A stretch of DNA of 64,000 nt from NCBI GenBank assembly GCA_017601345.1, contig JAFNIT010000001.1, forward strand, positions 12,835 to 76,834, written 5' to 3'. This document shows, piece by piece, positions 6,177 through 39,840 of this stretch (position 1 is its first letter; the number at the start of each line of letters is the position of its first letter). The notes below the pieces were generated by a model. It made no database searches. It saw nothing but the letters and a program-made list of their open reading frames with translations, and was not told the origin of the DNA. The stretch comes from Candidatus Brockarchaeota archaeon. GTDB lineage: Archaea > Thermoproteota > EX4484-205 > JAAOZP01. A program made the position numbers and the translations under genes.

Positions 6177-7106
6177 TTGAAGATGCGCCAAGAAGTAGTC
6201 CAAGACTTTACGAAATGCCCTAACTGTAACTCCCCTATTATAAATTCGGATAATGAGCTTGTTTGCAGCAGATGTGGTCTAGTTGTCAGTGCTTCAAACA
6301 GATATGTGGCCTATCCAAGTCCGAATCACATTATTCAAAAAGAACCTCATTACGGGAGCACTATTATAGAGAGAAACTCTCTTAGAAAAATATCCAGCCT
6401 CCAAAAAAGCATATCTTCCCCTAATAAAAGCGAAAACGAATTAAAATGGTTAATAGATAAATTGTGTGATACATTTCATTTAGGTCCCTCAATAAGACTG
6501 GAATCGCATCGGATTGGTTTAAGTCTGCTTCATGCATTCAGACAAAATCATGAGAGACCTAATAGAGCAGCTATTGCAACATATTCTGTAGTTACTGCAG
6601 CAAGGTTTCACGGCTTAAACACAACTCTTCATTACAAGAAGATAAGAACATATTTGCAAAGCATAGGTCTTAAAGTTAAAACCAGGGATGTTCTTCAAGT
6701 AATATCTGCAGCAAGAGGAATAGGCCTTATGGAAGCGAGAAATGATGCCGACAATACAATTATTGAAATTACGTCTATGATCATGAGGAATAATAGCCGT
6801 CTGGAAAAGCTTAAGCCTGAAGACAAAGTCAGTTTTATCAATCATCTTAGAACAATCTCATTCAGAATTCTCAAAGATTTAAGAGCCAAACATTATTTTT
6901 TTAGAAGCAAGAACCCGATGATATGCATAGCTTCTATAATTTACGCAGCATCTAGAGAGGCGGCATCAATCTTAAACATCAAAAACCCTGTTACTCAAAG
7001 GGAATTAGCAGAGTACATAGGGTATGCAGAATACAGTGTTAGAGAAACTTATGAGGAATTGTTTGGAAAAAGTTCATCAATATTCGATTCTTCACAGATT
7101 TCTTGA
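6177..7106 (+). CDS. Transcription initiation factor TFB-family protein, divergent paralog
   Basis: N-terminal zinc ribbon CPNC-x15-CSRC, then about 270 aa of cyclin-fold-length sequence. The B-reader/linker and core positions are poorly conserved compared with canonical TFB. Confidence 0.7.
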   Translation: MKMRQEVVQDFTKCPNCNSPIINSDNELVCSRCGLVVSASNRYVAYPSPNHIIQKEPHYGSTIIERNSLRKISSLQKSISSPNKSENELKWLIDKLCDTFHLGPSIRLESHRIGLSLLHAFRQNHERPNRAAIATYSVVTAARFHGLNTTLHYKKIRTYLQSIGLKVKTRDVLQVISAARGIGLMEARNDADNTIIEITSMIMRNNSRLEKLKPEDKVSFINHLRTISFRILKDLRAKHYFFRSKNPMICIASIIYAASREAASILNIKNPVTQRELAEYIGYAEYSVRETYEELFGKSSSIFDSSQIS

Positions 7107-7552
7107 CGAAGAAAATGTACTATATTGCTACTACGCCTAATTGAGAAAAATCCTTCACAGTCTTCTGCATAAGCCTCAACGGCTATTTGGATAACGTATT
7201 CTTCAGTATTATTGAGGAAAACAATAGAGTTTTCAAAGCGGATTTTTAATCCGCATTCTTCTAAAAATCCTTTGGTTTTTGAAACTTTTTCTATTAATTT
7301 TTCAATCCTCTTTTCTAAGGTTTCCCTCATAATTGAAAAATTCCCTCTCGAACCACTTATGCTATCATCCAGAATTGTGCTAATGCTTTTAAAGAAATCA
7401 TCTATACAGGAGTCAGCGATGATCGCTTTCCTTTTTTGTTTTAAGAAATTTACTGAAAGCTCAACGTTTACTAAGAGCATGAGGTTTACTGCAAGTAGAA
7501 CAATCATCATGAGAATTGAAAAAAACATTATAATAAGCCAGGTTTTAATCAT
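7049..7552 (-). CDS. Small membrane-anchored protein (N-terminal signal-anchor; pilin-like/pilus-associated candidate)
   Basis: N-terminus MIKTWLIIMFFSILMMIVLLAVNLMLL followed by a soluble domain. Last gene of a five-gene overlapping minus-strand operon. Its 3' end overlaps the TFB-paralog 3' end by 58 nt. Confidence 0.45.
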   Translation of the reverse strand: MIKTWLIIMFFSILMMIVLLAVNLMLLVNVELSVNFLKQKRKAIIADSCIDDFFKSISTILDDSISGSRGNFSIMRETLEKRIEKLIEKVSKTKGFLEECGLKIRFENSIVFLNNTEEYVIQIAVEAYAEDCEGFFSIRRSSNIVHFLRQEICEESNIDELFPNNSS

Positions 7553-7940
7553 TTCTAATCCCTATCGTAAGATACAATACATCTTCACCCACGATCTTTA
7601 AGACTTTGACATATCTGACCTGCTCCAAAGACTCTATTGAAACTTCCTCATTCCTTATTGTGATCCTCCCATGCTTCTCGCTGGAAAGCTCTATACTCAC
7701 CCATTTCACTTCATCAGAATTTAGAAACTTAATCAATTTATCAAGCATATTTTTAATCTCATGTTCTCGGTCAAGTATTGTAAGTGCATTAACCTCTATT
7801 CTCAAATCCTCATCGATATCGGATAATGATTTAAATTTCAACCTCAAATATTGGGAAGCAGCAACTACGGGTATAACTAGAAAGAAGCTTAAGATTATTG
7901 CTAATATACTTTCCCAAGAATCCATAGTATTTTTCACCAC
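7545..7940 (-). CDS. Small membrane-anchored protein (pilin-like candidate)
   Basis: N-terminal hydrophobic segment SILAIILSFFLVIPVVAAS. Start and stop overlap the neighbouring genes. Confidence 0.45.
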   Translation of the reverse strand: MVKNTMDSWESILAIILSFFLVIPVVAASQYLRLKFKSLSDIDEDLRIEVNALTILDREHEIKNMLDKLIKFLNSDEVKWVSIELSSEKHGRITIRNEEVSIESLEQVRYVKVLKIVGEDVLYLTIGIRND

Positions 7941-8065
7941 CTTTTGATGAAATCCATTATAATAGATATATTATGTAAGGTAAGCAAAAGAGCTAAACCA
8001 AGTTCGATTATTATCAGCAAGACTACGATTGAGGAGAATAGTGATTCAAGTAGCTTATCGCTCAT
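7937..8065 (-). CDS. Putative 42-aa hydrophobic micro-protein
   Basis: Minus-strand ORF MSDKLLESLFSSIVVLLIIIELGLALLLTLHNISIIMDFIKRW, not in the ORF track. Its ATG overlaps the stop of the upstream gene, fitting the overlap pattern of this operon. Confidence 0.3.
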
Positions 8066-8453
8066 GTCTAGTAAATACAACCTCCCTACCTGATGCTTTG
8101 ACAAAATATTTGCCTCCGGGTTCTAAAATAACTCTATTAAAGTAATAATATTCCTCTTCTCCCTCGAAAACACAGATTCCATGAACAATGATGTAATACT
8201 TGTTGCCGTCAAGCATAATGGAATAATTAATTAAGGGGGGATTTGGCATTAACAGAGTGAAAGCACATCCATGTTTCTCCGAGAGGATAGCGTATTGTTT
8301 TATTACTAAAAATATGCTTTCAAAGATATTTTTTAATGAACCAGTTTTCAGAATGTAAGTGGTATTAAAAATAACAATTCCTATTAGAAATGACGTAAAA
8401 AGCCATGAAGCATCTTTCAAATGCTCTTCAAGTATTTCGCTCAATGACCTCAC
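8055..8453 (-). CDS. Small membrane-anchored protein with beta-rich C-terminal domain (pilin-like candidate)
   Basis: Charged N-terminus, then WLFTSFLIGIVIFNTTYIL, then a ~90-aa globular domain. Confidence 0.45.
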   Translation of the reverse strand: MRSLSEILEEHLKDASWLFTSFLIGIVIFNTTYILKTGSLKNIFESIFLVIKQYAILSEKHGCAFTLLMPNPPLINYSIMLDGNKYYIIVHGICVFEGEEEYYYFNRVILEPGGKYFVKASGREVVFTRHER

Positions 8454-8458
8454 CCAAG

Positions 8459-8641
8459 TTAGCTAGCAACCAGCTTAACTACGGCATCGTATATTTGCTT
8501 GAGCATAGGAACTACTTGATCAAGCAAGTAAGCAATACTGATTCCAAATATTATTGTTGAAAAAAGTACTATCAGACTTTTCTCTAACAGATTACCCATC
8601 TCTCTAAACCTCCCAGTTTGAAATTTTCTTTCATTATTCAA
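8459..8641 (-). CDS. Small membrane protein, possible class-III signal peptide (FREMG|NLLEK...)
   Basis: 60 aa: basic N-terminus, a Gly, then a 22-residue hydrophobic helix. First gene of the minus-strand operon. TATA-like TTATAAGCATTCTTATAG in the upstream divergent region. Confidence 0.45.
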   Translation of the reverse strand: MNNERKFQTGRFREMGNLLEKSLIVLFSTIIFGISIAYLLDQVVPMLKQIYDAVVKLVAS

Positions 8642-8729
8642 CAGAAATCTCTATAAGAATGCTTATAACCTCCAATGCGCGTCAATATTGGCGGATAAAT
8701 ATTCTTTTTAAAAGTTTGGAATAGAAGTG
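8642..8729. promoter_or_regulatory. Bidirectional promoter region between the two arms of the pilus-like locus
   Basis: 88-bp AT-rich spacer. TATA-like TTTTTAAAAG lies ~20 bp upstream of the plus-strand small ORF. TATA-like TTATAAG (minus orientation) lies 20-40 bp upstream of the minus-strand ATG at 8641. Confidence 0.4.
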
Positions 8730-8876
8730 ATGTCAAAAGACGATCTATTAATTAATGCAATAATTCAAGAAATAGAAGATTTGAAGATTAGTCTAAGCAA
8801 GCTCAACAATAGGGTTTTAAGCTTAGAGAAAAAGTATCGTGAGCTAAGCAATTTCCTAAAGGTTGTCTACAGATGA
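8730..8876 (+). CDS. 48-aa coiled-coil protein, translationally coupled to the downstream ATPase
   Basis: MSKDDLLINAIIQEIEDLKISLSKLNNRVLSLEKKYRELSNFLKVVYR with a heptad-like pattern. Its stop TGA overlaps the ATG of the 8873 ORF (ATGA). Not in the ORF track. Confidence 0.4.
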   Translation: MSKDDLLINAIIQEIEDLKISLSKLNNRVLSLEKKYRELSNFLKVVYR

Positions 8877-10753
8877 ACGAGACTAGAGAAAACCTTGTAT
8901 TTTTTGCGCAAAGAACATGGTCATGGAATGCTAAGAGTAAAATCCTATACCTATCTGCTCAGAAAATCGACTCTTCTCTTTTCTGCAACATTATACATAA
9001 GCTTACACATCTTTCCCCGAGAAGAATTATAGTTCATCTTGATGATGAATGGTACGAGGTCAATAAAGAATGCTTAGATTTTCTAAAGAAATGCTCTCAA
9101 AGAGTTATTGAAGAGAAAAACAAGCGTTATAAAGCTCTTGTTGAAAAAAATTGTGACGACTACGCTAACCTGGATGATATTCAGAAAGAGCTCTGTATTA
9201 CTCCGTCTTACGGTACCTTATACTTAAAATGCTTAAACCAGATGCTGGAACTTAATATACCCGGCGAGTTATTGACCAGATGCGATATTAAAGATATGGA
9301 AAATGTTTTTAACAAGAAGTTTTCGGACAACCATAGATACGTAATAGGCCACTTACTCTACTCAATAGACGAAAGAAATAGTCTTTACAGAGTTTCCTTC
9401 TTATCAGACGATTATTTCTGGATTAATAAAGAGCTTTCGATACTCCTACGTCATGCTTATTCTGAAGAAATGCTTAAGAGTGGAAGGCTAGATCAAATTT
9501 ACAGACACAGGCTTAAAACTGGTTTAAGATTCTTAAAAATTCTGACTTCAAGAGAAATCGAGAAGTCAGTAAAGAAGTCTCTCGTTAAACATGCTCTATA
9601 CTCTTCGATTGGATTATCCAAGATCTTTCCTTTAATAATCGATGATAATGTGCAAAACTTCTTCTTAGACAATGTTGGTGAAAAGTTGTATGTAGATCAC
9701 GCCGTTTTTGGAAGACTAGATACAAACCTCAGATTTCAAGAGAAGGATTTTGAAAGCTTCATAACCCTGATCAAAAGAGAATCTAACCTTAATCTGGATT
9801 ATGCTAATCCTTCAATTAAGACTTCCATATTTTTTGATAAAATACCTATAAGAATTTCGGTAGATATTCCTCCCCTAACTTGGGGTAAGGGAGTTATAGA
9901 TGTACGGAAGCATATGAGTAATGTTCTTTCTCTCAAGTACCTTCTGGAGACGCATTATTTTTCTCCAGAATCCGTTGCCTTCTTAATCTTTGCCACACTT
10001 AACAGGGCCAACATATCTATAGTTGGAGAACCGAATTCTGGAAAAACTTCTCTCTTAAACTTTTTGAGCTACTTCATGCCCTCCTGGTGGCGCATAGTGC
10101 ACATAGAAGATGCTCTTGAAACACTCCCCCAAAGAGTTTCTGATCAACACAGGATAGTATACATTGTCGAGCCATTCGAAAGCAGGGAAGCTAAGGATAC
10201 TAAAACTCTCGAAATAATTAAGGTACTTCACAGAACCCCTTCTTATCTAATTCTTGGAGAAATCCAGACTAGAGGGCATGTAAAAGCAATGTTTCGAGCA
10301 GTTTCCGCTGGACTCAGGATAATGCATACTGCACATGCTTCCGATAGCAATGGATTTATTAAGAGGCTTGTAAAAGTATACGGTATCCCAGAGCTACTCA
10401 TATCGGAACTGGACTTGATAATAACTATGAAGAGAGTAGAATGGAGAAATACAGTTAAACGGTTTATAAGCGAGATAAAGATAGTTGATGAGAACTCTGG
10501 TTTGAAGAAAGTTTACGCTAATAATAATTTTTTAAAAAATTCTGCATACTATGATGATTTAAACGCTTCAAAGATATTTAGAAAATTAGCACGTTTAAAC
10601 TGTATTGAAGAAAATGTTCTTCAAGAAATGTATGAGGATATTAAAAGAATAATTATTAATCACGCTTTTTCAGAAAACTCCGTTATCAGGAAGCTTGTTA
10701 TTGAAACCTATTCGAAGACTTTAGGGGGAAATAGAAGCTATGAAAAGTATTAA
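8873..10753 (+). CDS. Type II/IV secretion-system ATPase (FlaI/TadA/VirB11 family) with a long N-terminal extension
   Basis: Walker A SIVGEPNSGKTSLLNF at about residue 386. Asp box/Walker B LILGEIQTRGH. His box MHTAHASD. Roughly 350 aa of N-terminal sequence precedes the P-loop. Confidence 0.85.
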   Translation: MNETRENLVFFAQRTWSWNAKSKILYLSAQKIDSSLFCNIIHKLTHLSPRRIIVHLDDEWYEVNKECLDFLKKCSQRVIEEKNKRYKALVEKNCDDYANLDDIQKELCITPSYGTLYLKCLNQMLELNIPGELLTRCDIKDMENVFNKKFSDNHRYVIGHLLYSIDERNSLYRVSFLSDDYFWINKELSILLRHAYSEEMLKSGRLDQIYRHRLKTGLRFLKILTSREIEKSVKKSLVKHALYSSIGLSKIFPLIIDDNVQNFFLDNVGEKLYVDHAVFGRLDTNLRFQEKDFESFITLIKRESNLNLDYANPSIKTSIFFDKIPIRISVDIPPLTWGKGVIDVRKHMSNVLSLKYLLETHYFSPESVAFLIFATLNRANISIVGEPNSGKTSLLNFLSYFMPSWWRIVHIEDALETLPQRVSDQHRIVYIVEPFESREAKDTKTLEIIKVLHRTPSYLILGEIQTRGHVKAMFRAVSAGLRIMHTAHASDSNGFIKRLVKVYGIPELLISELDLIITMKRVEWRNTVKRFISEIKIVDENSGLKKVYANNNFLKNSAYYDDLNASKIFRKLARLNCIEENVLQEMYEDIKRIIINHAFSENSVIRKLVIETYSKTLGGNRSYEKY

Positions 10754-11321
10754 GAAGCTTTTAACATCTCTTTACATTTTAGCACCAATAAGGAAAAAAG
10801 AAGAGAGTTCTTATGAGATAGTGACTCCATTGGTAATGGATATCATTACTGCTAAAACAATTTATAATGATTTATATAAGACATTTTATAGCGTTTCAAA
10901 AAAGGAATATGGCAATATCTACAGCTTATTAAGAAAATGTCTTAGGGAGAACTTAAATGGGAAGGATATGCAAAAAATGATAAAAAATTCTTTACAAAAT
11001 GATCCAGAACTATTAACTATTATTGATCAAGCATTTTCCATCGATGTAAAGAAAATAAGTTCAGAAGAAGTCCTAGTGCTCTTTAGGATTTTTGAATCTA
11101 AGGCAAGAAGGAAATATCAAGAATATACTCTAAAGCTTAACTCCTTGGTTTCTATTTTCTTCTTCTATATCTTCCTTGTTCCAACTCCAATTATACTGAT
11201 CTCAGAATTCCTGCCACAGACTTCCTATATACTACTGCCAATCTTTTTCATTTCCAATACCCTGATATTTAGAATATTTTTTAATAAGATTAGGAGGATC
11301 AAGAGTGAATTATTAGGTTGA
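10740..11321 (+). CDS. TadB/TadC-like platform protein, first half (single T2SSF-like unit)
   Basis: A ~130-aa cytoplasmic helical domain followed by hydrophobic helices (SLVSIFFFYIFLVPTPIILISEF, SYILLPIFFISNTLIFRIFF). Its ends overlap the ATPase upstream and the next ORF downstream. Confidence 0.55.
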   Translation: MKSIKKLLTSLYILAPIRKKEESSYEIVTPLVMDIITAKTIYNDLYKTFYSVSKKEYGNIYSLLRKCLRENLNGKDMQKMIKNSLQNDPELLTIIDQAFSIDVKKISSEEVLVLFRIFESKARRKYQEYTLKLNSLVSIFFFYIFLVPTPIILISEFLPQTSYILLPIFFISNTLIFRIFFNKIRRIKSELLG

Positions 11322-12091
11322 GGAATATTTATTATTATATATTAATTGAAGCAGGAATTCTTATTTTAGCATTTATCTTAAAACTCGAGATTCCAGCTAT
11401 AACTTCATTGCAACTTCTAGTATATACATTAATATTGACCAAAAATGGAGATGATGTGGATTCTCCAAAAACACTGGATTTGAGAGCAGTGGAGAAGATA
11501 TCCGAATATCCTGGAAACTTGGAAAATTTAGTTTTTAAATCATTTTCAGATATTAATGGGGAAACGGATTGTCGTAAGATTTTCGAAAAAGCTATTCACG
11601 ACAACATAAACGGTTTTCCAATAGGAAAAGCTCTAGTAAAGTATTCCAAACCATCAGATAAAACTATTAAAATATTGATGAAACTCGTTTCAAGCCTATT
11701 CGTTAGAGATGCGTCTTCTGTCAAAAAAGTTTTAGAAACATATATTATCATTCTGAAAGAAAACGAGATATTGAAAAATGAGAGAAGAAACATTTTTTCA
11801 GAGGCGAGGTTTAGAGCCAGAATAATGCTAATCGTTAGTGCTCTTTTAATGGGATTTCTTTCAGCAACGGGACCAGTAATCCACATGTTCTCTTCTTTTT
11901 CATCAAAGCCGATTCTTCAATTAGAAGCATCGCAAACATTTTCATTATTTACGTATTTACTGAGCGTTTCGATACTAGTACATTATTCTCTCTCTTATAA
12001 GAAGCTTTTGAAAACATTGCTATACTCCATAACCAGTTTTGCACTCTCTTTTCTAATATTTAACAAAGTACTTACAGCATTCCTATTTTAA
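11318..12091 (+). CDS. TadC/FlaJ-like platform protein, second half (polytopic membrane protein)
   Basis: Two N-terminal TM helices, a ~130-aa soluble domain, and three C-terminal TM helices. The ATGA-type overlap with the preceding ORF suggests two coupled genes rather than one fused FlaJ. Confidence 0.55.
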   Translation: MRNIYYYILIEAGILILAFILKLEIPAITSLQLLVYTLILTKNGDDVDSPKTLDLRAVEKISEYPGNLENLVFKSFSDINGETDCRKIFEKAIHDNINGFPIGKALVKYSKPSDKTIKILMKLVSSLFVRDASSVKKVLETYIIILKENEILKNERRNIFSEARFRARIMLIVSALLMGFLSATGPVIHMFSSFSSKPILQLEASQTFSLFTYLLSVSILVHYSLSYKKLLKTLLYSITSFALSFLIFNKVLTAFLF

Positions 12092-12110
12092 ATGTCTCTT
12101 AATTCCATTG

Positions 12111-12125
12111 GAGCTTATATTTTGT
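12111..12125 (+). promoter_or_regulatory. Putative internal promoter (TATA-like) for the pilin gene
   Basis: GAGCTTATATTTTG lies about 35 bp upstream of ATG 12158, inside the only non-overlapping gap (66 bp) of the operon. Confidence 0.3.
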
Positions 12126-12157
12126 TCATCTCCATTTGTAAATGAGGTGATGTAGAT

Positions 12158-12346
12158 TTGAAAATGAGAATTAAGGGATCGCAATTAATAGAAGAAGGGT
12201 TGCTTGTTGTGCTTGCACTAGTAATGCTTGGAGCAGTCTTTGGGATTTCAAAACAAATCGTGGATCACATAGCCAGTTTCTTCAACTCTCTAATAAAGGG
12301 TGTAAGTGACTTAGGCTATAGCCTATTCGGATGGCTCCTTCCTTAA
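12158..12346 (+). CDS. Flp/type-IV-like pilin with class III signal peptide
   Basis: MKMRIKG|SQLIEEGLLVVLALVMLGAVFG: a basic N-terminus, a Gly at the putative prepilin-peptidase site, Glu at +5, then a 20-residue hydrophobic helix. 62 aa in total. Confidence 0.6.
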   Translation: MKMRIKGSQLIEEGLLVVLALVMLGAVFGISKQIVDHIASFFNSLIKGVSDLGYSLFGWLLP

Positions 12347-12350
12347 AATA

Positions 12351-14123
12351 ATGGATCAAAAAATAGATCCAATATACTTCGTATTTCTTATAGTGTTACT
12401 CATATCGATGCTTAAACATATTGCAGCCGCTTTGCCTTTTTCTTTCAACAATTACTTTCCTGCCGTTTTGCCTACAGTATTCTCCCTAATAACAATCATA
12501 ATAGTATTTTTATTAAAACGCTCCAAATCTATTAAAAGTATACTACCAATTAATGACGAAAAATACTTTATTGTGAAAACAGACTCTTCTGAATTAATAA
12601 TAGGAGGGGTTTCAATATCCCCTGAAGAAAGCTCTGAATTAAGAAGTATTAAAGCCGACGATTACTATCGGAGGGTTCAGAGTTTCATAAGTGGTATTTT
12701 AAAGTCCGGAGTTTCACTCACATGCGTAACGCATATTTCTCCCGTTGAGGCTTTTGAGGACTCTGCTCATTTGACGCAGCTTTTAATAGTCAGTAGAAAA
12801 ATAGGTCGAGAGGGTATTAACGAAGCTATAAAAATGCTTGAAACAGATATTGAAAAAATGAGATCTATTTACAATACTGCTTTTCCAGAACTGAAAATAG
12901 TCAGGTTGAGTGGAGAGAAACTTATTAAGTATTTGAACAGTATTTTAATAGATAAGTCTGTCTTAGGAAAGTCTAAAGTAAGAGATTTAGCAAATTCGCT
13001 CGCACTGCATGTACCTGGATATACTTCCCTGCTTCCTTCAAATTCTTATATTGAACATGAGGGGGGAAAAGAAACGATAGATTTAGGATCGGTTATTTTC
13101 AGTGGTTCTAAAATTGCTCCGTTAAAATTAAAGATCAATATGTTTGAAAAGCATGTTGCCATATATGGTTCAACAGGATCGGGAAAGACAACTACCGCCA
13201 AACATATAGTGAGAGAATTAGCAAGATTGGGATATTCTTTAATGATTCTAGACTGGCATAATGAATACCGTCATCTTGCAGAAGAGCTTAATGGAAGAAT
13301 TTTAGGATTAGGGTCTTTCGCTTTAGATATAATTAACCCCATTGAATCTAGCAATGTATCTGAGCATGTTGCAATGGTTACAGATATTTTTGATCAAATA
13401 TATAATTTTACACCGTCACAATCGTATATGTTTAGAGAGGTGCTTTTACAAACGTTAACAGAGAACATGCTCGGTATTAAAGCATATGATCCTTTGGTTT
13501 CCTTTATAGATACGTTGGAGAAATGGAGTATTAAATCATTCTATGAAAATGAGACAAAGTTTGCATTGTTAAGAAGATTAAGACCTTTAGTAACAGGACA
13601 GAACAGAGAAATTTTCTGCAATAGGGATAAGCTAATAAGCATCAGAGATATATTAGAAGGAATTACTGTTTTCGAGCTCGGAGATATCATAGAAGTAGAC
13701 ATGCGTAAACTGACTTCACTTTTCATTTTAGCATTACTTTACGAATTTAGATTAAAGAATAGGGATTCGAAGCGCCACTTCATCGTATTAGAAGAAGCGC
13801 ATAATATACTTCCTTACAGGAGGCGTGATTCACCACAGACTATAGCTGAAAAATTATTTTTAGAGATGAGGAAGTTTAATGAAAGTTTAATACTTATATC
13901 ACAATTTCCGTCGCAAATTTCTCCAGAAATAGTAAAGTCCACCGGTTTGAAAATCTCTCACAGAATATGTGAGGGGGAGGAGTCGAGAATCTTAATGGAT
14001 ATAATGGGCTTATCTCAGGAAGATTATGACCTTCTTAAGAGGCTTCCCCCGGGATATGGCTTTTTAACGGCTGAAGGCATTTCTAAACCAATCTTTTTAT
14101 CTATCTATTTCAACGAAAAATGA
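12351..14123 (+). CDS. Membrane-anchored HerA/VirB4(CedB)-like P-loop ATPase (DUF87/FtsK-HerA superfamily)
   Basis: Two N-terminal TM helices (IYFVFLIVLLISMLKHIAAALPF; AVLPTVFSLITIIIVFLLK). Walker A YGSTGSGKTTTAKHI. Walker B FIVLEEAHNILP. A C-terminal LILISQFPSQI...ISHRI motif typical of HerA/VirB4/TrbE ATPases. Confidence 0.75.
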   Translation: MDQKIDPIYFVFLIVLLISMLKHIAAALPFSFNNYFPAVLPTVFSLITIIIVFLLKRSKSIKSILPINDEKYFIVKTDSSELIIGGVSISPEESSELRSIKADDYYRRVQSFISGILKSGVSLTCVTHISPVEAFEDSAHLTQLLIVSRKIGREGINEAIKMLETDIEKMRSIYNTAFPELKIVRLSGEKLIKYLNSILIDKSVLGKSKVRDLANSLALHVPGYTSLLPSNSYIEHEGGKETIDLGSVIFSGSKIAPLKLKINMFEKHVAIYGSTGSGKTTTAKHIVRELARLGYSLMILDWHNEYRHLAEELNGRILGLGSFALDIINPIESSNVSEHVAMVTDIFDQIYNFTPSQSYMFREVLLQTLTENMLGIKAYDPLVSFIDTLEKWSIKSFYENETKFALLRRLRPLVTGQNREIFCNRDKLISIRDILEGITVFELGDIIEVDMRKLTSLFILALLYEFRLKNRDSKRHFIVLEEAHNILPYRRRDSPQTIAEKLFLEMRKFNESLILISQFPSQISPEIVKSTGLKISHRICEGEESRILMDIMGLSQEDYDLLKRLPPGYGFLTAEGISKPIFLSIYFNEK

Positions 14124-14709
14124 GATTCAGCTTCTCGGAATGCTTAGAGAAATAACTAATCCAATCCACTTCATCACTCTTACATTTAAAGTCATTCTTA
14201 TAGCATTTCATAAACCTGTAATAGAGGTTTTTAATGCTTTTCCTAGTAGTGTCTAACTGTATGATCCTTACCTTTTTCAAGTATTTTTTAGCATTTAAGT
14301 AACAATAATCCGTAAGCTCCGATTCAACATTCTCCCTCGCTTTTTCCTCATTATATCCTTTAATTTTCCTGAGTCTATGCCAAAGAACATCAGGTCTGCA
14401 TCTCAATACGATACAACAGTCCACGTACTCAGCTGGAGAAACCTCCGCAGCATAATGGCCGTCTATTAGGAGGTTTAAATCCTCTCCAAGCTTGCTTAAA
14501 ATATATTTTCGTAAAGCCTTCTTCAGAACGCTTGTATCCACAATTCTAGTTTTCATAATACTGTCGTAGCCGATTACAGCATTCGAATCTATTGCAAACT
14601 TTCCCAAGTCAAGATGTACCCATCCTCTATTCTTTCTCACTACATAGCTGCACAGAGATGTTTTGCCGGTTCCAGCTGTGCCAGTAACAACTATGATTTT
14701 CCTCATCAC
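14110..14709 (-). CDS. Putative adenylate kinase / NTPase, Fap7-like (AAA-family kinase)
   Basis: P-loop IIVVTGTAGTGKTS at the N-terminus. ~200 aa with NMP-kinase-like layout. Confidence 0.55.
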   Translation of the reverse strand: MMRKIIVVTGTAGTGKTSLCSYVVRKNRGWVHLDLGKFAIDSNAVIGYDSIMKTRIVDTSVLKKALRKYILSKLGEDLNLLIDGHYAAEVSPAEYVDCCIVLRCRPDVLWHRLRKIKGYNEEKARENVESELTDYCYLNAKKYLKKVRIIQLDTTRKSIKNLYYRFMKCYKNDFKCKSDEVDWISYFSKHSEKLNLIFR

Positions 14710-19375: not shown

Positions 19376-20224
19376 GTGAATAAGCTTTTACAGTTGCAGC
19401 GCCGGGAAGCGGTTACTAGATATTCATGCTCCGTGTGCGGACGCCCTCTCAGCGCTGAATACAAGTTCTGCCCGTCTTGTGGAGCACCGCGCAAAGGAAT
19501 CTCGTATGTGAGGAAGGTTTCTACTGGAAATCCTGCTATCGACGAAATACTAGAAGGAGGTTTTGAGGCAGGTAAGACATATCTGCTCGCGGGAGAAGCT
19601 GGAACTGGTAAAACTATCTTCAGTCTCCAATACCTGATATACGGTGCCAAAAACAATGAGCCCGGTATCTACGTGACGATTGATGAAAGACCGGAGGTTT
19701 TGGTAAAAGATGTCAGAAACTTCGGCTGGGATCTCCAGCCCCTCATAGAGACAAGGAGAATCTCAATAATACCAGTTAGGAGATATTTCACCTCTAGAAT
19801 GTGGGGTAGGGAAATGGATACTATAGTTAACAGCATAGTTGAAGAATTGGACAGGAAAAAGAAGGAGATAAATGCTAAGAGGCTTGTGATAGACCCTATA
19901 GCACCCTTGGTGACAACGTATTCCAATGAGATAGCATGGGTCAGAGAGTATATTAGAAGCCTGATATTTTCTATAGAAGAACGTTTAGGCGTAACGACGC
20001 TCATAACCTCTGAGATACCGACCGGCGAGAATGCGATGAGTAGATACGGTGTTGAAGAATTCTTAGCCTCTGGTGTCATAATACTTTCATTGACAAGAGT
20101 CGGAAATTCTATTATAAGAACGATGTTCATCAGAAAAATGCGATGGACTGCTGTCAATCCAACGATATACAGGTTTGAAATAGAACGCGGTCGTGGTATA
20201 GTTCTTAAAGAACCCTTAACTTAG
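19376..20224 (+). CDS. KaiC/RadA-paralog ATPase (single RecA-like domain) with N-terminal zinc ribbon
   Basis: CSVCG...KFCPSCGA zinc ribbon, then Walker A LLAGEAGTGKTIFSLQYL and a KaiC-like core. Confidence 0.7.
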   Translation: MNKLLQLQRREAVTRYSCSVCGRPLSAEYKFCPSCGAPRKGISYVRKVSTGNPAIDEILEGGFEAGKTYLLAGEAGTGKTIFSLQYLIYGAKNNEPGIYVTIDERPEVLVKDVRNFGWDLQPLIETRRISIIPVRRYFTSRMWGREMDTIVNSIVEELDRKKKEINAKRLVIDPIAPLVTTYSNEIAWVREYIRSLIFSIEERLGVTTLITSEIPTGENAMSRYGVEEFLASGVIILSLTRVGNSIIRTMFIRKMRWTAVNPTIYRFEIERGRGIVLKEPLT

Positions 20225-37980: not shown

Positions 37981-39840
37981 ATGAGTAGAATGTTTACAGC
38001 CTTCATGCCTTTAACTTTGATTGCATCGATTCTTTTAGCCACTCTCGTCGTTAACTTAAGTGGTAACAATAGCGGACTAAGAAGCTTTACGTCTTATGGA
38101 GAGCTAGAGAATTTTGTCAAAAGCAGGGTTATTGGAAAATATTTGAAGGAATTTTTCGGAGATTTGAATTACTGGGTTGAAAGCCCGTATTTATCGCCAA
38201 GGCTTTCTCTTGGGGCTGATGCTATTGGTACGCTCGAAGCCGAATACTCGACTACTAATATCCAAGTCTCTGGTGTTGACGAAGCCGATATTGTTAAGAC
38301 AGATGGCAGATATATCTACATGTTTTCTGGGAGAAACATATTCATAATTGAAGCCTATCCTCCGGAGAAGATGAATAAGGTCTCTGAGATCAAGATTAAA
38401 GGAAATCCCATTGGTCTATTTGTTAACAATGACAGGCTTGCTGTGTTAAAATATGATTCTATCGCTTTCAAAGAAGAGGATTATCCTTGCTATCGATGGG
38501 TAACGGTTTTAGAGATTTACGATATTTCAAATATAAACAATCCCGTTCTGAAGAAGCGTGTTTCCACCGATGGTTCTTACTTGAGTTCTAGGATGATTGG
38601 GAGGTATGTTTACATCGTTGCAACCAGTCCCGTTATCAGGATTTTTGACGATGATTGGAAAGTTCTCACTCCTCAAGTAATGGTTGGAGATAACGTTGTC
38701 AACATTCCTCCAAACAAAATATTCTATTCCGATACTATTGAGGTTCCTGAAAGCTACACCACTATAATTGCAGTAGACCTGTATTCTGAGGAAGGCTTAG
38801 AGTATAAGTCTGTTTTAACAGGCTACGCGTCCTGCATGTACGTCTCTTTGGACAATATTTACGTCACCATGCCGAAGCAGTTCTGGGTATGGGAAATTGA
38901 AGGATCGACTGAGATACATAGGATTAGGATTAATGGTCTCGATATAAAGTGTGAGGCGAGCGGCGAGGTTCCAGGCAGGGTTTTAAACCAGTTTTCGATG
39001 GATGAGTATGAAGGCTATTTCAGAATAGCAACTACTACGGGGCATGTGGCGAGGATCCTGAGCGAGGCTACAAGTGCCAACCATGTTTACATCCTTGATT
39101 CCGAGACGCTCAGGGTAGTTGGCAGGCTTGAAGACCTGGCCCCCGGAGAACAGATATACTCGGCCAGGTTCATGGGCTCAAGGTGCTATCTCGTCACCTT
39201 CAAAAAGGTTGATCCGCTTTTCACAATAGACGTGAGTAATCCTGCCGAGCCAAGAGTTCTCGGCAAGCTTAAGATACCTGGGTACTCCAACTACCTCCAC
39301 CCCTACGACAGCGATTACCTCATAGGCATAGGTAAGGAGACTGTTGAAGCAGAGGAGGGGGATTTCGCATGGTACCAGGGTTTGAAAATATCGCTGTTCG
39401 ATGTTTCAAACGTGACTAGCCCGAGAGAGGTTGGCAAGATAATCATAGGCGACAGGGGAACGGATTCGCCAGTCTTAAGTGACCATCACGCCTTACTTTT
39501 TGACAAGAAAAGAAACCTTCTTGTAATACCCATATTGGAGGCTAAGATTTTTAGAGAGAAATATTCTGGAGACATCCCGCCTTATACCTATGGCGAGTAT
39601 GTTTTCCAAGGAGCGTATATTTTCAACATTTCTCCTACGGAAGGCATAAGCCTGAGAGGCAGGATAACACACTTTGAAAACATCGAAGACCTGGATAAGA
39701 GCGGTTACTATTTCAACTCAAAGTATCAAGTGATTAGAGGCCTCTACATCGGCGATGTTTTATACACTCTCTCCAGCAGGATGGTTAAGGCAAACAGCCT
39801 TACAGACCTCTCTGAAATCTCTAGCGTTAGACTAGACTAA
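37981..39840 (+). CDS. Secreted/membrane-anchored beta-propeller domain protein (COG4880-like)
   Basis: N-terminal signal-anchor (FMPLTLIASILLATLVV), then about 580 aa of beta-rich repeats with many N-glycosylation sequons (NLS, NNS, NVT). Confidence 0.6.
   Translation: MSRMFTAFMPLTLIASILLATLVVNLSGNNSGLRSFTSYGELENFVKSRVIGKYLKEFFGDLNYWVESPYLSPRLSLGADAIGTLEAEYSTTNIQVSGVDEADIVKTDGRYIYMFSGRNIFIIEAYPPEKMNKVSEIKIKGNPIGLFVNNDRLAVLKYDSIAFKEEDYPCYRWVTVLEIYDISNINNPVLKKRVSTDGSYLSSRMIGRYVYIVATSPVIRIFDDDWKVLTPQVMVGDNVVNIPPNKIFYSDTIEVPESYTTIIAVDLYSEEGLEYKSVLTGYASCMYVSLDNIYVTMPKQFWVWEIEGSTEIHRIRINGLDIKCEASGEVPGRVLNQFSMDEYEGYFRIATTTGHVARILSEATSANHVYILDSETLRVVGRLEDLAPGEQIYSARFMGSRCYLVTFKKVDPLFTIDVSNPAEPRVLGKLKIPGYSNYLHPYDSDYLIGIGKETVEAEEGDFAWYQGLKISLFDVSNVTSPREVGKIIIGDRGTDSPVLSDHHALLFDKKRNLLVIPILEAKIFREKYSGDIPPYTYGEYVFQGAYIFNISPTEGISLRGRITHFENIEDLDKSGYYFNSKYQVIRGLYIGDVLYTLSSRMVKANSLTDLSEISSVRLD

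Follow-up and report, generated by a model that had tools for sequence, protein, structure and literature searches.

DNA exchange in archaea is understood only from the Ced and Ups systems of Sulfolobales and the Ted system of Thermoproteales, which are seen as domesticated type IV secretion systems (T4SS) and are viewed as working beside, rather than within, a type IV pilus (T4P) operon. The window analyzed here, a stretch of 64,000 nucleotides (nt) from contig JAFNIT010000001.1 of Candidatus Brockarchaeota archaeon (GCA_017601345.1, positions 12,835–76,834 of the forward strand), contains a bidirectional gene cluster in which a Tad/Flp-like pilus module is joined, physically and transcriptionally, to the closest relative of the CedD import motor, a membrane-anchored ATPase of 590 amino acids (aa). 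A full-length paralog of the transcription factor TFB lies at one end of the cluster (Table 1). This locus may be a pilus-coupled DNA-transfer machine under the control of a dedicated TFB, the best-supported reading and one for which we consider the case for and the case against, as far as they can be drawn from sequence, to be evenly balanced.

CedD was defined in 2025 as a membrane-bound ATPase of the FtsK/HerA superfamily that is essential for DNA import (Saci_0667 in Sulfolobus acidocaldarius, SiRe_1715 in Saccharolobus islandicus; PMC11823120, PMC11868833). It is induced by DNA damage in a TFB3-dependent manner (PMC11823120, PMC11868833, PMC6101591, PMC6101594), TFB3 activating the ups, ced and cedD (herA1/SiRe_1715) promoters after such damage (PMC6101594, PMC6101591), and it co-occurs with CedA/CedB in genomes (PMC11868833). 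CedD has been reported only in Sulfolobales, Desulfurococcales, Acidilobales and Thermofilales and, as TedD, in Thermoproteales (PMC11823120, PMC11868833). The 590-aa protein has the same N-terminal transmembrane (TM) helices, N-domain and HerA/VirB4-like ATPase domain as CedD, and its gene occupies the same chromosomal slot, with a TFB paralog nearby. However, the CedD gene of Sulfolobales stands alone and its product works with CedA/A1/A2/CedB encoded elsewhere, whereas the 590-aa gene is the last cistron of a T4P/Tad-like operon and is coupled to a prepilin gene; moreover, its family is found in Brockarchaeota, Nitrososphaerota and Bathyarchaeia, from which CedD has not been reported. Nothing was found in the CedD papers (PMC11823120, PMC11868833) on a pilus operon beside cedD or on the adjacency of cedD and tfb3. 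The triad of type IV pilus, membrane FtsK/HerA-family translocase and TFB paralog recalls the Ups/Ced/TFB3 set of Sulfolobales, but in the latter each of the three has a locus of its own, Glu +5 is missing from the pilins and TFB3 is a truncated protein of 170–195 aa with a Zn ribbon only, whereas the Brockarchaeota locus holds all three together, with a Flp-like pilin, a full-length TFB paralog and no CedA/CedB. T4P and Ced are likewise treated as separate systems in the structural paper on Ced and Ted.

Among archaeal pilus loci, the nearest described arrangement is that of ‘subclade 4D’ from Pyrobaculum/Thermoproteus, in which a T2SSE ATPase, a small polytopic membrane protein and a TFIIB homologue lie by RPB8/RpoG (PMC4858521) and the function of which was called unknown (Makarova, Koonin & Albers 2016, PMC4858521); TFIIB homologues were found in the same 2016 census to be frequent neighbours of archaeal T4P (PMC4858521). 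Compared by its description, subclade 4D differs in having neither pilins nor a HerA-family ATPase (PMC4858521), and it may be a reduced form of the locus presented here. In the literature, no description was found of an archaeal operon joining a pilus motor with a CedD-like ATPase, and searches on Brockarchaeota pili and on archaeal Flp with DNA uptake returned nothing relevant. This agrees with the initial annotation of this DNA, which knew of no archaeal operon combining a Tad/T4P motor with a translocation ATPase. The locus thus brings together parts that are known (T4P/Tad module, CedD-type ATPase, TFB paralog) in a combination that is new, conserved over many lineages and probably ancestral.

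The 590-aa protein carries a DUF87/HerA-type ATPase core (Pfam, 7.4e-22). Among curated families, it fits CedD best (NCBIfam NF053655, DNA-translocating ATPase; 207.2 bits, E = 4.3e-61), the model being matched end to end (residues 13–585 of the protein, positions 4–525 of the 527 of the model); the NCBIfam models of HerA, VirB4 and TraC give 29–59 bits. CedD was the top NCBIfam match for every family member tested, with 110–250 bits on its model and at most about 95 bits on those of HerA, CedB or VirB4, so the CedB-like label initially given to this ATPase has to be abandoned in favour of CedD. An AlphaFold2 model (pLDDT 77) places TM helices at residues 7–27 and 36–55, an alpha/beta N-domain at 63–199 and a VirB4/HerA-like ATPase domain at 242–585, which, together with the DUF87 match, is the domain architecture of CedD and bears out the earlier description of a two-TM HerA/VirB4-type ATPase. 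The protein is probably hexameric, with two TM helices per subunit as in coupling proteins. BLASTP aligned it with S. acidocaldarius CedD over 323 residues at 33% identity (E = 1e-40), with the motifs GSTGSGKT, ILDWH(N/G)EY and EEAHN in common, and the catalytic motifs are kept in both ATPases of the locus, the T2SSE and the CedD-like one. Because word-indexed searches, whether with the single protein or with a 12-sequence profile, did not reach Sulfolobales CedD, the latter was reached only by an exhaustive search of representatives and by NCBIfam labelling. This exhaustive profile search of 1.84 billion representatives yielded about 35 clusters of full-length relatives, followed by a tier of matches (200–300 bits) covering the ATPase domain only. 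The one protein labelled in that tier (P0213) scored 563 bits on the CedD model and, when used as a query, returned named proteins of S. acidocaldarius, Sa. islandicus, Acidianus and Sulfurisphaera, several of them in the same tier. CedD-type proteins thus come next after the family itself in the exhaustive search, and two members of the family of the window ATPase (P0181 and P0041) rank just behind the CedD group when a CedD-type query is used, this reciprocal closeness being judged from profile scores and search ranks rather than from a tree. By its scores, the 590-aa family is a distinct CedD-proximal branch that lies below the curated threshold for membership.

A HerA–NurA repair helicase, a reading that the initial annotation had named among those that would refute a transport function, shares the DUF87 ATPase core but was rejected: two TM helices and an alpha/beta N-domain replace the HAS barrel, the HerA models give 36–59 bits against cut-offs of 800–970, and there is no neighbouring nurA, mre11 or rad50 gene, nurA being absent from every locus table inspected (window and related loci).

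The second ATPase of the cluster, of 626 aa, matches Pfam T2SSE (6.3e-13, 48.5 bits for a cut-off of 24.9), NCBIfam FlaI (2.9e-29, far under the equivalog cut-off of that model) and, in the PDB, afGspE (3e-20), FlaI (5e-18) and CpaF (8e-14). Its Walker A motif (GEPNSGKT) and Asp/His-box residues are invariant in 18 orthologues, and it possesses a unique N-terminal region of about 230 aa. It was thus correctly designated a FlaI/TadA-type secretion ATPase. The 193-aa and 257-aa membrane proteins encoded downstream have no Pfam match in the window, but positional orthologues of the 257-aa protein match T2SSF in 4 of 16 cases (the best, at 3e-6 and 27.6 bits, being the one above the cut-off of 25.2 bits), those of the 193-aa protein do so weakly in 1 of 16, and the two families are mutually homologous (hhalign 92%, E = 6.8e-7), as expected for a TadB/TadC pair. 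The initial assignment to TadB/TadC-like platform proteins is therefore plausible from the orthologues and the mutual homology, and not from the window proteins themselves.

The prepilin of 62 aa, with the sequence M-K-M-R-I-K-G|S-Q-L-I-E-E (G|SQLIEEGLLVV...), has a basic leader, then a hydrophobic helix and, towards the C-terminus, an amphipathic one. In 22 diverse homologues from all lineages, position −1 is always G or A and Glu +5 and +6 are invariant, giving the consensus [KR][GA]|[SAV]QL[IV]EE[GA]LL, with a hydrophobic helix after it; at the level of this motif, the protein appears to follow the Flp/T4P design with a class-III-signal-like leader. The minus arm consists, as first described, of five small open reading frames (ORFs), each with an N-terminal hydrophobic segment. 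Pfam and NCBIfam searches with their products gave noise only. These proteins are conserved in Brockarchaeota, with the hydrophobic helix almost at the N-terminus (MSNLLEK, MNEILEEH, MSDKLLDF, MQFLEG and MIKTWLIP). The first of them, called as a 46-aa protein in an independent assembly and with orthologues that begin MS(N/S)LLEK, resembles the N-terminus of a leaderless mature prepilin, with Glu at about position 5, and its alignment with the mature 62-aa protein is colinear but weak (hhalign E = 0.0014, probability 18%). The first minus-arm genes of distant lineages begin M-x-[LIV][LIV]-E-[KY] (e.g. MAVVEVIEY, MKSVEYML). The minus-arm proteins are presumably pilin-like subunits with a very short leader or none. 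In several lineages, the minus arm is headed by a protein of about 190–210 aa with 4–7 TM helices (L004:5768-6355(-), L039:4494-5129(-), L025:5545-6117(-) and L035:5184-5765(-)); its gene is absent from the window locus, two of the four proteins tested have a weak Peptidase_A24 match, and it could be a dedicated prepilin peptidase.

The module resembles bacterial Tad/Flp (type IVc) systems in its TadA/CpaF-related ATPase, its two putative single-domain T2SSF platform proteins, its very small prepilin (G|xxxxE, then a hydrophobic helix) and its several small pseudopilin-like proteins. It differs from them in that no Pfam model of Flp, TadE or TadZ is matched, a secretin is lacking (as is an outer membrane) and the ATPase is nearer to archaeal FlaI/GspE2; in bacteria, DNA passes through ComEC/ComFA, and the pilus operon encodes no HerA-family ATPase for this purpose. 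A bacterial precedent for the function comes from Micrococcus luteus, in which natural transformation depends on Flp/Tad pili (PMC4322843). As in T4SS/Ted, a VirB11-superfamily ATPase is found with a VirB4/VirD4-like membrane ATPase, the gene of which directly follows that of a small hydrophobic protein. Unlike T4SS/Ted, however, the first ATPase is of the FlaI/TadA type with putative T2SSF partners, the small protein has a class-III-signal-like motif and no VirB2 hairpin, and no VirB6/CedA/TedA-like channel is present. Outside the locus, the eight large or membrane ORFs searched in the 64 kb of the window matched no relevant family, four of them having no Pfam match at all.

The prepilin and CedD-like genes are translationally coupled, as judged from their spacing: the median distance from prepilin stop to ATPase start is −1 nt, and the genes overlap or lie 30 nt or less apart in 69 of 72 loci. 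In the window, plus-arm genes overlap by 4, 14 and 4 nt, and 4 nt separate the prepilin gene from that of the 590-aa ATPase, which agrees with the tightly overlapping genes described at first. When the divergent intergenic regions of 14 orthologues were aligned, two TATA boxes (CTTATAA and ATAAATA) proved invariant, with ATTGGNG(R) in front of each on the respective strand, and the promoter before the prepilin gene (TTGGAGC-TTATATT) has the same design of TATA box and element resembling the B recognition element (BRE). In 56 of 76 loci, a corresponding motif, TGG-N3-4-TTA[AT]AT, was found within the 180 nt that precede the prepilin gene, so that the separately promoted pilin of the initial annotation is a conserved feature and the prepilin and CedD-like ATPase genes are predicted, with support from this motif, to form one transcription unit. 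The density of the motif in the promoter windows of the loci is 45-fold that in the remaining 2.66 Mb or so (both strands counted), and 59 of 81 matches to a stricter pattern fall inside these windows. The motif is absent from the flanking housekeeping genes and is, therefore, not the general promoter form of these organisms. A scan for sigma-70 promoters, a bacterial model irrelevant for an archaeon, showed no enrichment. A full-length TFB paralog in the locus itself and G-rich elements where a BRE would lie suggest a private promoter code. The sequence TGGAG(T/C)ATTAAAT also recurs inside the CedD-like coding region (13520–13535 in the window, about 11170–11195 in L009–L023); in Brockarchaeota CedD-like genes it encodes ...WSIK..., it accounts for about one third of the ‘background’ motif matches, and it may reflect either coding conservation or an internal promoter.

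The conservation of the cluster was assessed by scanning one genome per GTDB species with a 12-sequence alignment of the ATPase, which gave 134 relatives, of which 79 loci were kept. All 79 are from metagenome-assembled genomes (MAGs), labelled Brockarchaeota, Nitrososphaerota/Nitrososphaerales, Bathyarchaeia, Geothermarchaeota or Thermoproteota, a range well beyond the ‘Thermoprotei’ in which the initial annotation proposed to look for conservation. Homologues at 59, 35, 32 and 31% identity have the same gene order around them: a TFB-like gene (+), 3–6 small genes (-), a plus-strand series (small gene, T2SSE ATPase, two membrane proteins, protein of 60–83 aa, DUF87 ATPase) and an AAA_18 kinase (-). 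Components were counted among the six-frame ORFs of those related loci that had enough upstream DNA (at least 7.5 kb for TFB). With the window proteins as phmmer queries, the TFB paralog was found in 51 of 55 loci, the T2SSE ATPase in 60 of 63 and the 62-aa prepilin in 66 of 72; with profile hidden Markov models (HMMs), which were built from members of the same locus set and make the counts partly circular, the figures were 52/55, 61/63 and 71/72, and the TadB-like and TadC-like membrane proteins were found in 64/66 and 65/67, respectively. The HerA-like gene is present in every related locus, partly by design of the search. The core of the cluster is intact even where the flanks differ completely, as in L006. 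The recurrence of the cluster in 79 loci from different lineages is far beyond chance, and it is not by accident that the pilus module lies next to the membrane HerA/VirB4-type ATPase, since the two are co-linear in 61 of 63 loci, the prepilin and ATPase genes are translationally coupled and a dedicated promoter is conserved. Two side observations concern individual loci: the TFB-like genes at L007:2099-3046 and L008:2039-2959 seem, in the alignment, to lack the N-terminal Zn-ribbon cysteines, indicating either a mis-called start or a ribbon-less variant; and in L075, from Bathyarchaeia and one of the few loci in which the prepilin and CedD-like genes are uncoupled, an extra membrane protein of 323 aa without a Pfam match is encoded between them (8946-9917, +).

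The TFB paralog, the presence of which at the edge of the locus was noted at the outset, matches Pfam Zn_Ribbon_TF (1.1e-6) and NCBIfam TFIIB (7.8e-6). The profile of its family matches human TFIIB (6.4e-19) in two stretches (the best at positions 20–171), covering the Zn ribbon and both cyclin repeats, and the Pyrococcus TFB core (5.5e-14) over 232–318. The alignment shows CPxC...CxxCG and AEYT(I/V)RE, and the C-terminal helix-turn-helix is kept, so that the protein has the Zn ribbon, the two cyclin repeats and the C-terminal helix-turn-helix of a TFB/TFIIB. The protein of 170–195 aa with a Zn_Ribbon_TF domain that is encoded near cedD in Sulfolobales is, we presume, TFB3. Identification of the TFB paralog with TFB3 by sequence was rejected, the paralog being full-length at 309 aa with similarity limited to the Zn ribbon; it is the positional counterpart of Sulfolobales TFB3, orthology being by position only.

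This positional relationship rests on synteny. In S. acidocaldarius, Sa. islandicus and a related MAG (L088, L089 and L095), the plus strand carries RLI, FBPase, S17e, Urm1, a small ORF and CedD, followed by thermosome and Zn_Ribbon_TF protein genes (-), tRNA endonuclease, HisRS and proteasome genes, RpoG (-), Lsm_C and TGT (+) and PAC2 (-); RpoG, Lsm_C, TGT and PAC2 lie within 5 kb of the Zn-ribbon TFB in loci of this type. In the window and in L002/L003, the order is beta-CASP nuclease, PAC2, Lsm_C, locus and AAA_18 kinase, continuing with MFS, thermosome, S17e ... RLI and TIM in L002/L003 and with Rpr2, MarC and leuA in the window. L007/L008 show TGT, Lsm_C, RpoG, locus, kinase, thermosome, histone, S17e, ..., proteasome. 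Because the same housekeeping genes (Lsm_C, RpoG, TGT, PAC2; thermosome, S17e, RLI) flank both, Sulfolobales cedD is the positional orthologue of the 590-aa gene. The initial annotation had held that conservation beside housekeeping genes with a known non-DNA function would speak against DNA transport; the housekeeping neighbours are indeed there, and no known non-DNA function was found. In the Sulfolobales loci examined, the Tad-like module is absent from this slot, and the small ORFs upstream of cedD were not Flp-like in phmmer searches with the window proteins. As the complete locus spans many lineages, loss of the module in Sulfolobales would be more parsimonious than repeated gain, and the tfb3–cedD pair of Sulfolobales would then be a relic of this locus, Ups and CedA/B now being elsewhere. 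In L096 (GCA_028275745.1), a lone CedD-like gene (524 aa, 10001-11575), with neither TFB paralog nor pilus module, lies between RpoG, Lsm_C, TGT and thermosome, S17e, and looks like a ‘collapsed’ locus, and in L094 (a Fervidicoccaceae MAG) the CedD-like gene is elsewhere in the genome.

The G+C content is 0.33–0.35 over 6–14 kb of the window, as against 0.42–0.46 in the flanks. Over 49 loci, the G+C content of the locus falls below that of its flanks by as much as 8 points where the genome is AT-rich and exceeds it by as much as 5 points where the genome is GC-rich; this deviation tracks the bias of each genome, which points to fast-evolving, weakly constrained resident genes rather than to foreign DNA. 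No integrase, relaxase, replication gene or flanking tRNA was found among the ORFs and called genes of the window, in which no dedicated tRNA or repeat scan was made. The locus is chromosomal and vertically inherited.

Gene content, family assignments, conserved arrangement, operon coupling, promoter conservation and the cedD/tfb3 synteny are established directly by these analyses. The filament module would combine a single Flp-like prepilin and four to five small pilin-like proteins, with short leaders or none, with the FlaI/TadA-type ATPase and a platform divided between TadB- and TadC-like proteins. In the proposed machine, the TFB paralog would switch on three promoters (minus arm, plus arm and prepilin/CedD-like bicistron), possibly on DNA damage or cell contact; the T2SSE ATPase and platform would polymerize the Flp-like pilin into a short filament or pseudopilus, which would make contact with another cell or with DNA through the S-layer; and the CedD-like motor, at the base of the filament, would draw DNA through the cytoplasmic membrane. 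If it works as CedD does, transport would be in the direction of import. The anatomy and families on which the initial annotation built its candidate pilus-coupled DNA-translocation system have thus held and been strengthened, with CedD as the closest family and a wider range, while translocation itself is suggested by homology and synteny; what we infer is that a filament forms, that DNA is the substrate and moves in the direction given, and that the TFB paralog exerts control.

Several observations weigh against the proposed machine. The 207.2 bits of the 590-aa ATPase fall short of the CedD equivalog cut-off of 600 bits, and the BLASTP alignment with Sulfolobales CedD covers residues 267–577 only, the N-domain having diverged. 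In structure comparison, the fold is equally like VirB4, HerA, DndH-C and TrwB, with HerA (4d2i) as the top Foldseek match, and the substrate therefore cannot be read from structure. The locus contains no CedA/VirB6-like channel, nuclease, DNA-binding protein or recombination gene. No pilin family, including Pfam Flp, was matched at E <= 1 by any of the 22 prepilin homologues, so that, of the Flp-like pilin with a class III signal peptide and Glu +5 proposed initially, the motif stands in all homologues but the Flp model does not match. The window locus has no prepilin peptidase, and the Peptidase_A24 matches (E = 0.0011 in L039, 0.031 in L004) are below cut-off and limited to some related loci. 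The alignment (hhalign) of the TFB paralog with three Sulfolobales-type Zn-ribbon TFBs is confined to 26 columns of the Zn ribbon (E = 7.8e-8). Finally, the loci were baited with the HerA-like protein, so the counts show that the pilus module accompanies the ATPase and not the converse; a reverse scan of metagenome contigs, with a T2SSE-ATPase alignment and a generic Walker-A pattern, gave four loci, a poor sample of the converse. The only one of these four with enough downstream DNA, the very divergent L093, contains the full set, including the HerA-like gene.

An adhesion or aggregation pilus that moves no DNA, with the CedD-like ATPase as its second motor (extracting pilin, as VirB4 does for VirB2, or retracting the filament), is unlikely but is the most serious of the alternatives. 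It would account for the coupling of the CedD-like gene to a pilin gene rather than to a DNA-handling gene and for the lack of DNA-binding and DNA-processing genes in the locus, and an alternative retraction motor is plausible in archaea, which have no PilT-type retraction ATPases (PMC4858521). However, CedD, the nearest characterized relative, is dispensable for aggregation yet essential for DNA import (PMC11823120), and the ATPase gene is kept alone at the same slot in lineages without the pilus module, indicating that it has a function independent of this pilus. It is improbable that the locus encodes a non-filament membrane system, for protein secretion or as a transcription-linked complex, as speculated for the pilin-less subclade 4D: the TFB paralog and, in L007/L008, RpoG/Rpb8 adjoin the ATPase module as they do in that subclade (PMC4858521), and the small proteins match no pilin model of Pfam, but the RpoG adjacency belongs to a wider housekeeping synteny also seen in Sulfolobales, the class-III-signal-like motif of the 62-aa protein, with its Glu +5, is strictly conserved, T2SSF-type platform proteins are probably present, some loci have candidate A24 peptidases, and the second ATPase has a DNA importer as its closest family. 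That a pilus operon and a CedD-like gene are two independent systems frozen together by synteny is quite improbable; the whole region does lie within deeply conserved housekeeping synteny and CedD-like genes can stand alone (L094, L096), but the prepilin and ATPase genes abut or overlap almost throughout under a common conserved promoter, and the core persists between entirely different flanks (L006). An integrated conjugative or other mobile element, which the low G+C content of the window might suggest, is scarcely credible and was rejected, given the same chromosomal slot between the same housekeeping genes in distant lineages and a G+C deviation that follows the bias of each genome.

The gene map of the window is presented in Table 1. 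All 11 ORFs were found at the coordinates initially reported, and the same genes were called in an independent Logan assembly (SRR13673849) of the same contig (L001); the closest database protein, at 100% identity, is annotated ‘Candidatus Brockarchaeota archaeon’. The divergent region exists, but its reported length of 88 bp assumes the longest ORF for the first minus-arm gene, and the ATG of the orthologues gives about 127–130 bp. The coiled-coil-like protein that opens the plus arm has 49 aa. The TFB gene is convergent with the last minus-arm gene, overlapping it by 58 nt, and the counterpart of the small hydrophobic minus-arm protein is called as a 43-aa gene in L002.

Table 1. Features of the pilus–CedD-like locus and its borders in the 64,000-nt window
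Feature	Position	Strand	Remarks
TFB (TFIIB) paralog, full-length, 309 aa	6177..7106	+	Zn ribbon and two cyclin repeats
167-aa protein, minor-pilin-like, N-terminal TM helix (MIKTWLI...), last minus-arm gene	7049..7552	-	Conserved in Brockarchaeota orthologues
131-aa N-anchored protein, minor-pilin-like	7545..7940	-	Orthologues begin M(Q/D)FLE(G/S); probable start near 7925
Small hydrophobic protein	7934..8104	-	Longest ORF 56 aa; orthologues begin MSDKLL, giving 43 aa with start at 8065
132-aa protein, minor-pilin-like	8055..8453	-	Motif (S/N)EILEEHLKD, then TM helix
First minus-arm gene	8459..8641 (longest ORF)	-	Probable product 46 aa (8459-8599), MGNLLEKSLIV...
Divergent promoter region	8600..8726	.	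Two TATA boxes, each with a G-rich BRE-like element on its own strand
Minus-arm promoter	8662-8675	-	TTGGAGGTTATAAG
Plus-arm promoter	8688-8700	+	TTGGCGGATAAAT
49-aa soluble coiled-coil-like protein, first plus-arm gene	8727..8876	+	Conserved in Brockarchaeota and L024/L026
626-aa FlaI/GspE/TadA-type (T2SSE) assembly ATPase	8873..10753	+	Pfam, NCBIfam and PDB matches
193-aa membrane protein, TadB-like platform paralog	10740..11321	+	Homologous to the family of the next gene
257-aa membrane protein, TadC-like (T2SSF) platform protein	11318..12091	+	T2SSF matches in positional orthologues
Predicted internal promoter of the prepilin/CedD-like bicistron, TTGGAGC-TTATATT	12108..12121	+	In the 66-nt gap before the prepilin gene
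Flp-like prepilin, 62 aa (60 aa from ATG 12164)	12158..12346	+	Motif K-G|SQLIEE
590-aa membrane-anchored FtsK/HerA-superfamily ATPase, CedD type	12351..14123	+	Two TM helices, DUF87
AAA_18 nucleotide kinase-like protein	14110..14709	-	Pfam AAA_18 1.7e-19

The AAA_18 kinase-like gene, convergent with the CedD-like gene (14-nt overlap), lies downstream in 72 of 76 related loci; this constant position deserves attention, and it is not seen in Sulfolobales. The gene is probably a housekeeping neighbour and is not counted in the machine. Downstream of the locus, at a distance of about 5 kb and past leuA/leuCD, lies the gene of a KaiC-family ATPase that carries a zinc ribbon at its N-terminus (19376–20224, +; Pfam KaiC, 4e-65); KaiC-like ATPases are reported to be frequent T4P-associated regulators (PMC4858521). 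Farther away lies the gene (37981–39840, +) of a probable surface protein of 619 aa, which is anchored at its N-terminus and contains a beta-propeller domain (PF09826, 1e-160); nothing evident ties it to the locus.

Both the association and the synteny are firmly supported and would come as a surprise to specialists, whereas the function of the locus rests on inference. Beyond the machine itself, it is possible, though we hold this tentatively and on balance think it rather doubtful, that the locus is the ancestral chromosomal apparatus for DNA import or exchange of Thermoproteota (TACK archaea), producing a Flp filament and a CedD-type translocase from one bicistron with a private BRE-like element read by its own TFB, with TFB3–CedD and perhaps subclade 4D as its relics. 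The locus would provide a concrete evolutionary origin, in the same slot, for the CedD and TFB3 of Sulfolobales, and the TGG-N3-4-TTAAAT promoters are predicted to be specific targets of the TFB paralog that it encodes. According to their MAG labels, its carriers include several major lineages without a described DNA-transfer system. If the locus is indeed such an ancestral apparatus, uncultured Nitrososphaerota, Bathyarchaeia and Brockarchaeota would widely possess pilus-coupled DNA uptake or exchange, and archaea would offer a case in which the paralog of a general transcription factor has a promoter code of its own that serves a single machine. Horizontal gene flow and recombinational repair in abundant uncultured archaea of soils, sediments and hot springs would then become experimentally addressable.

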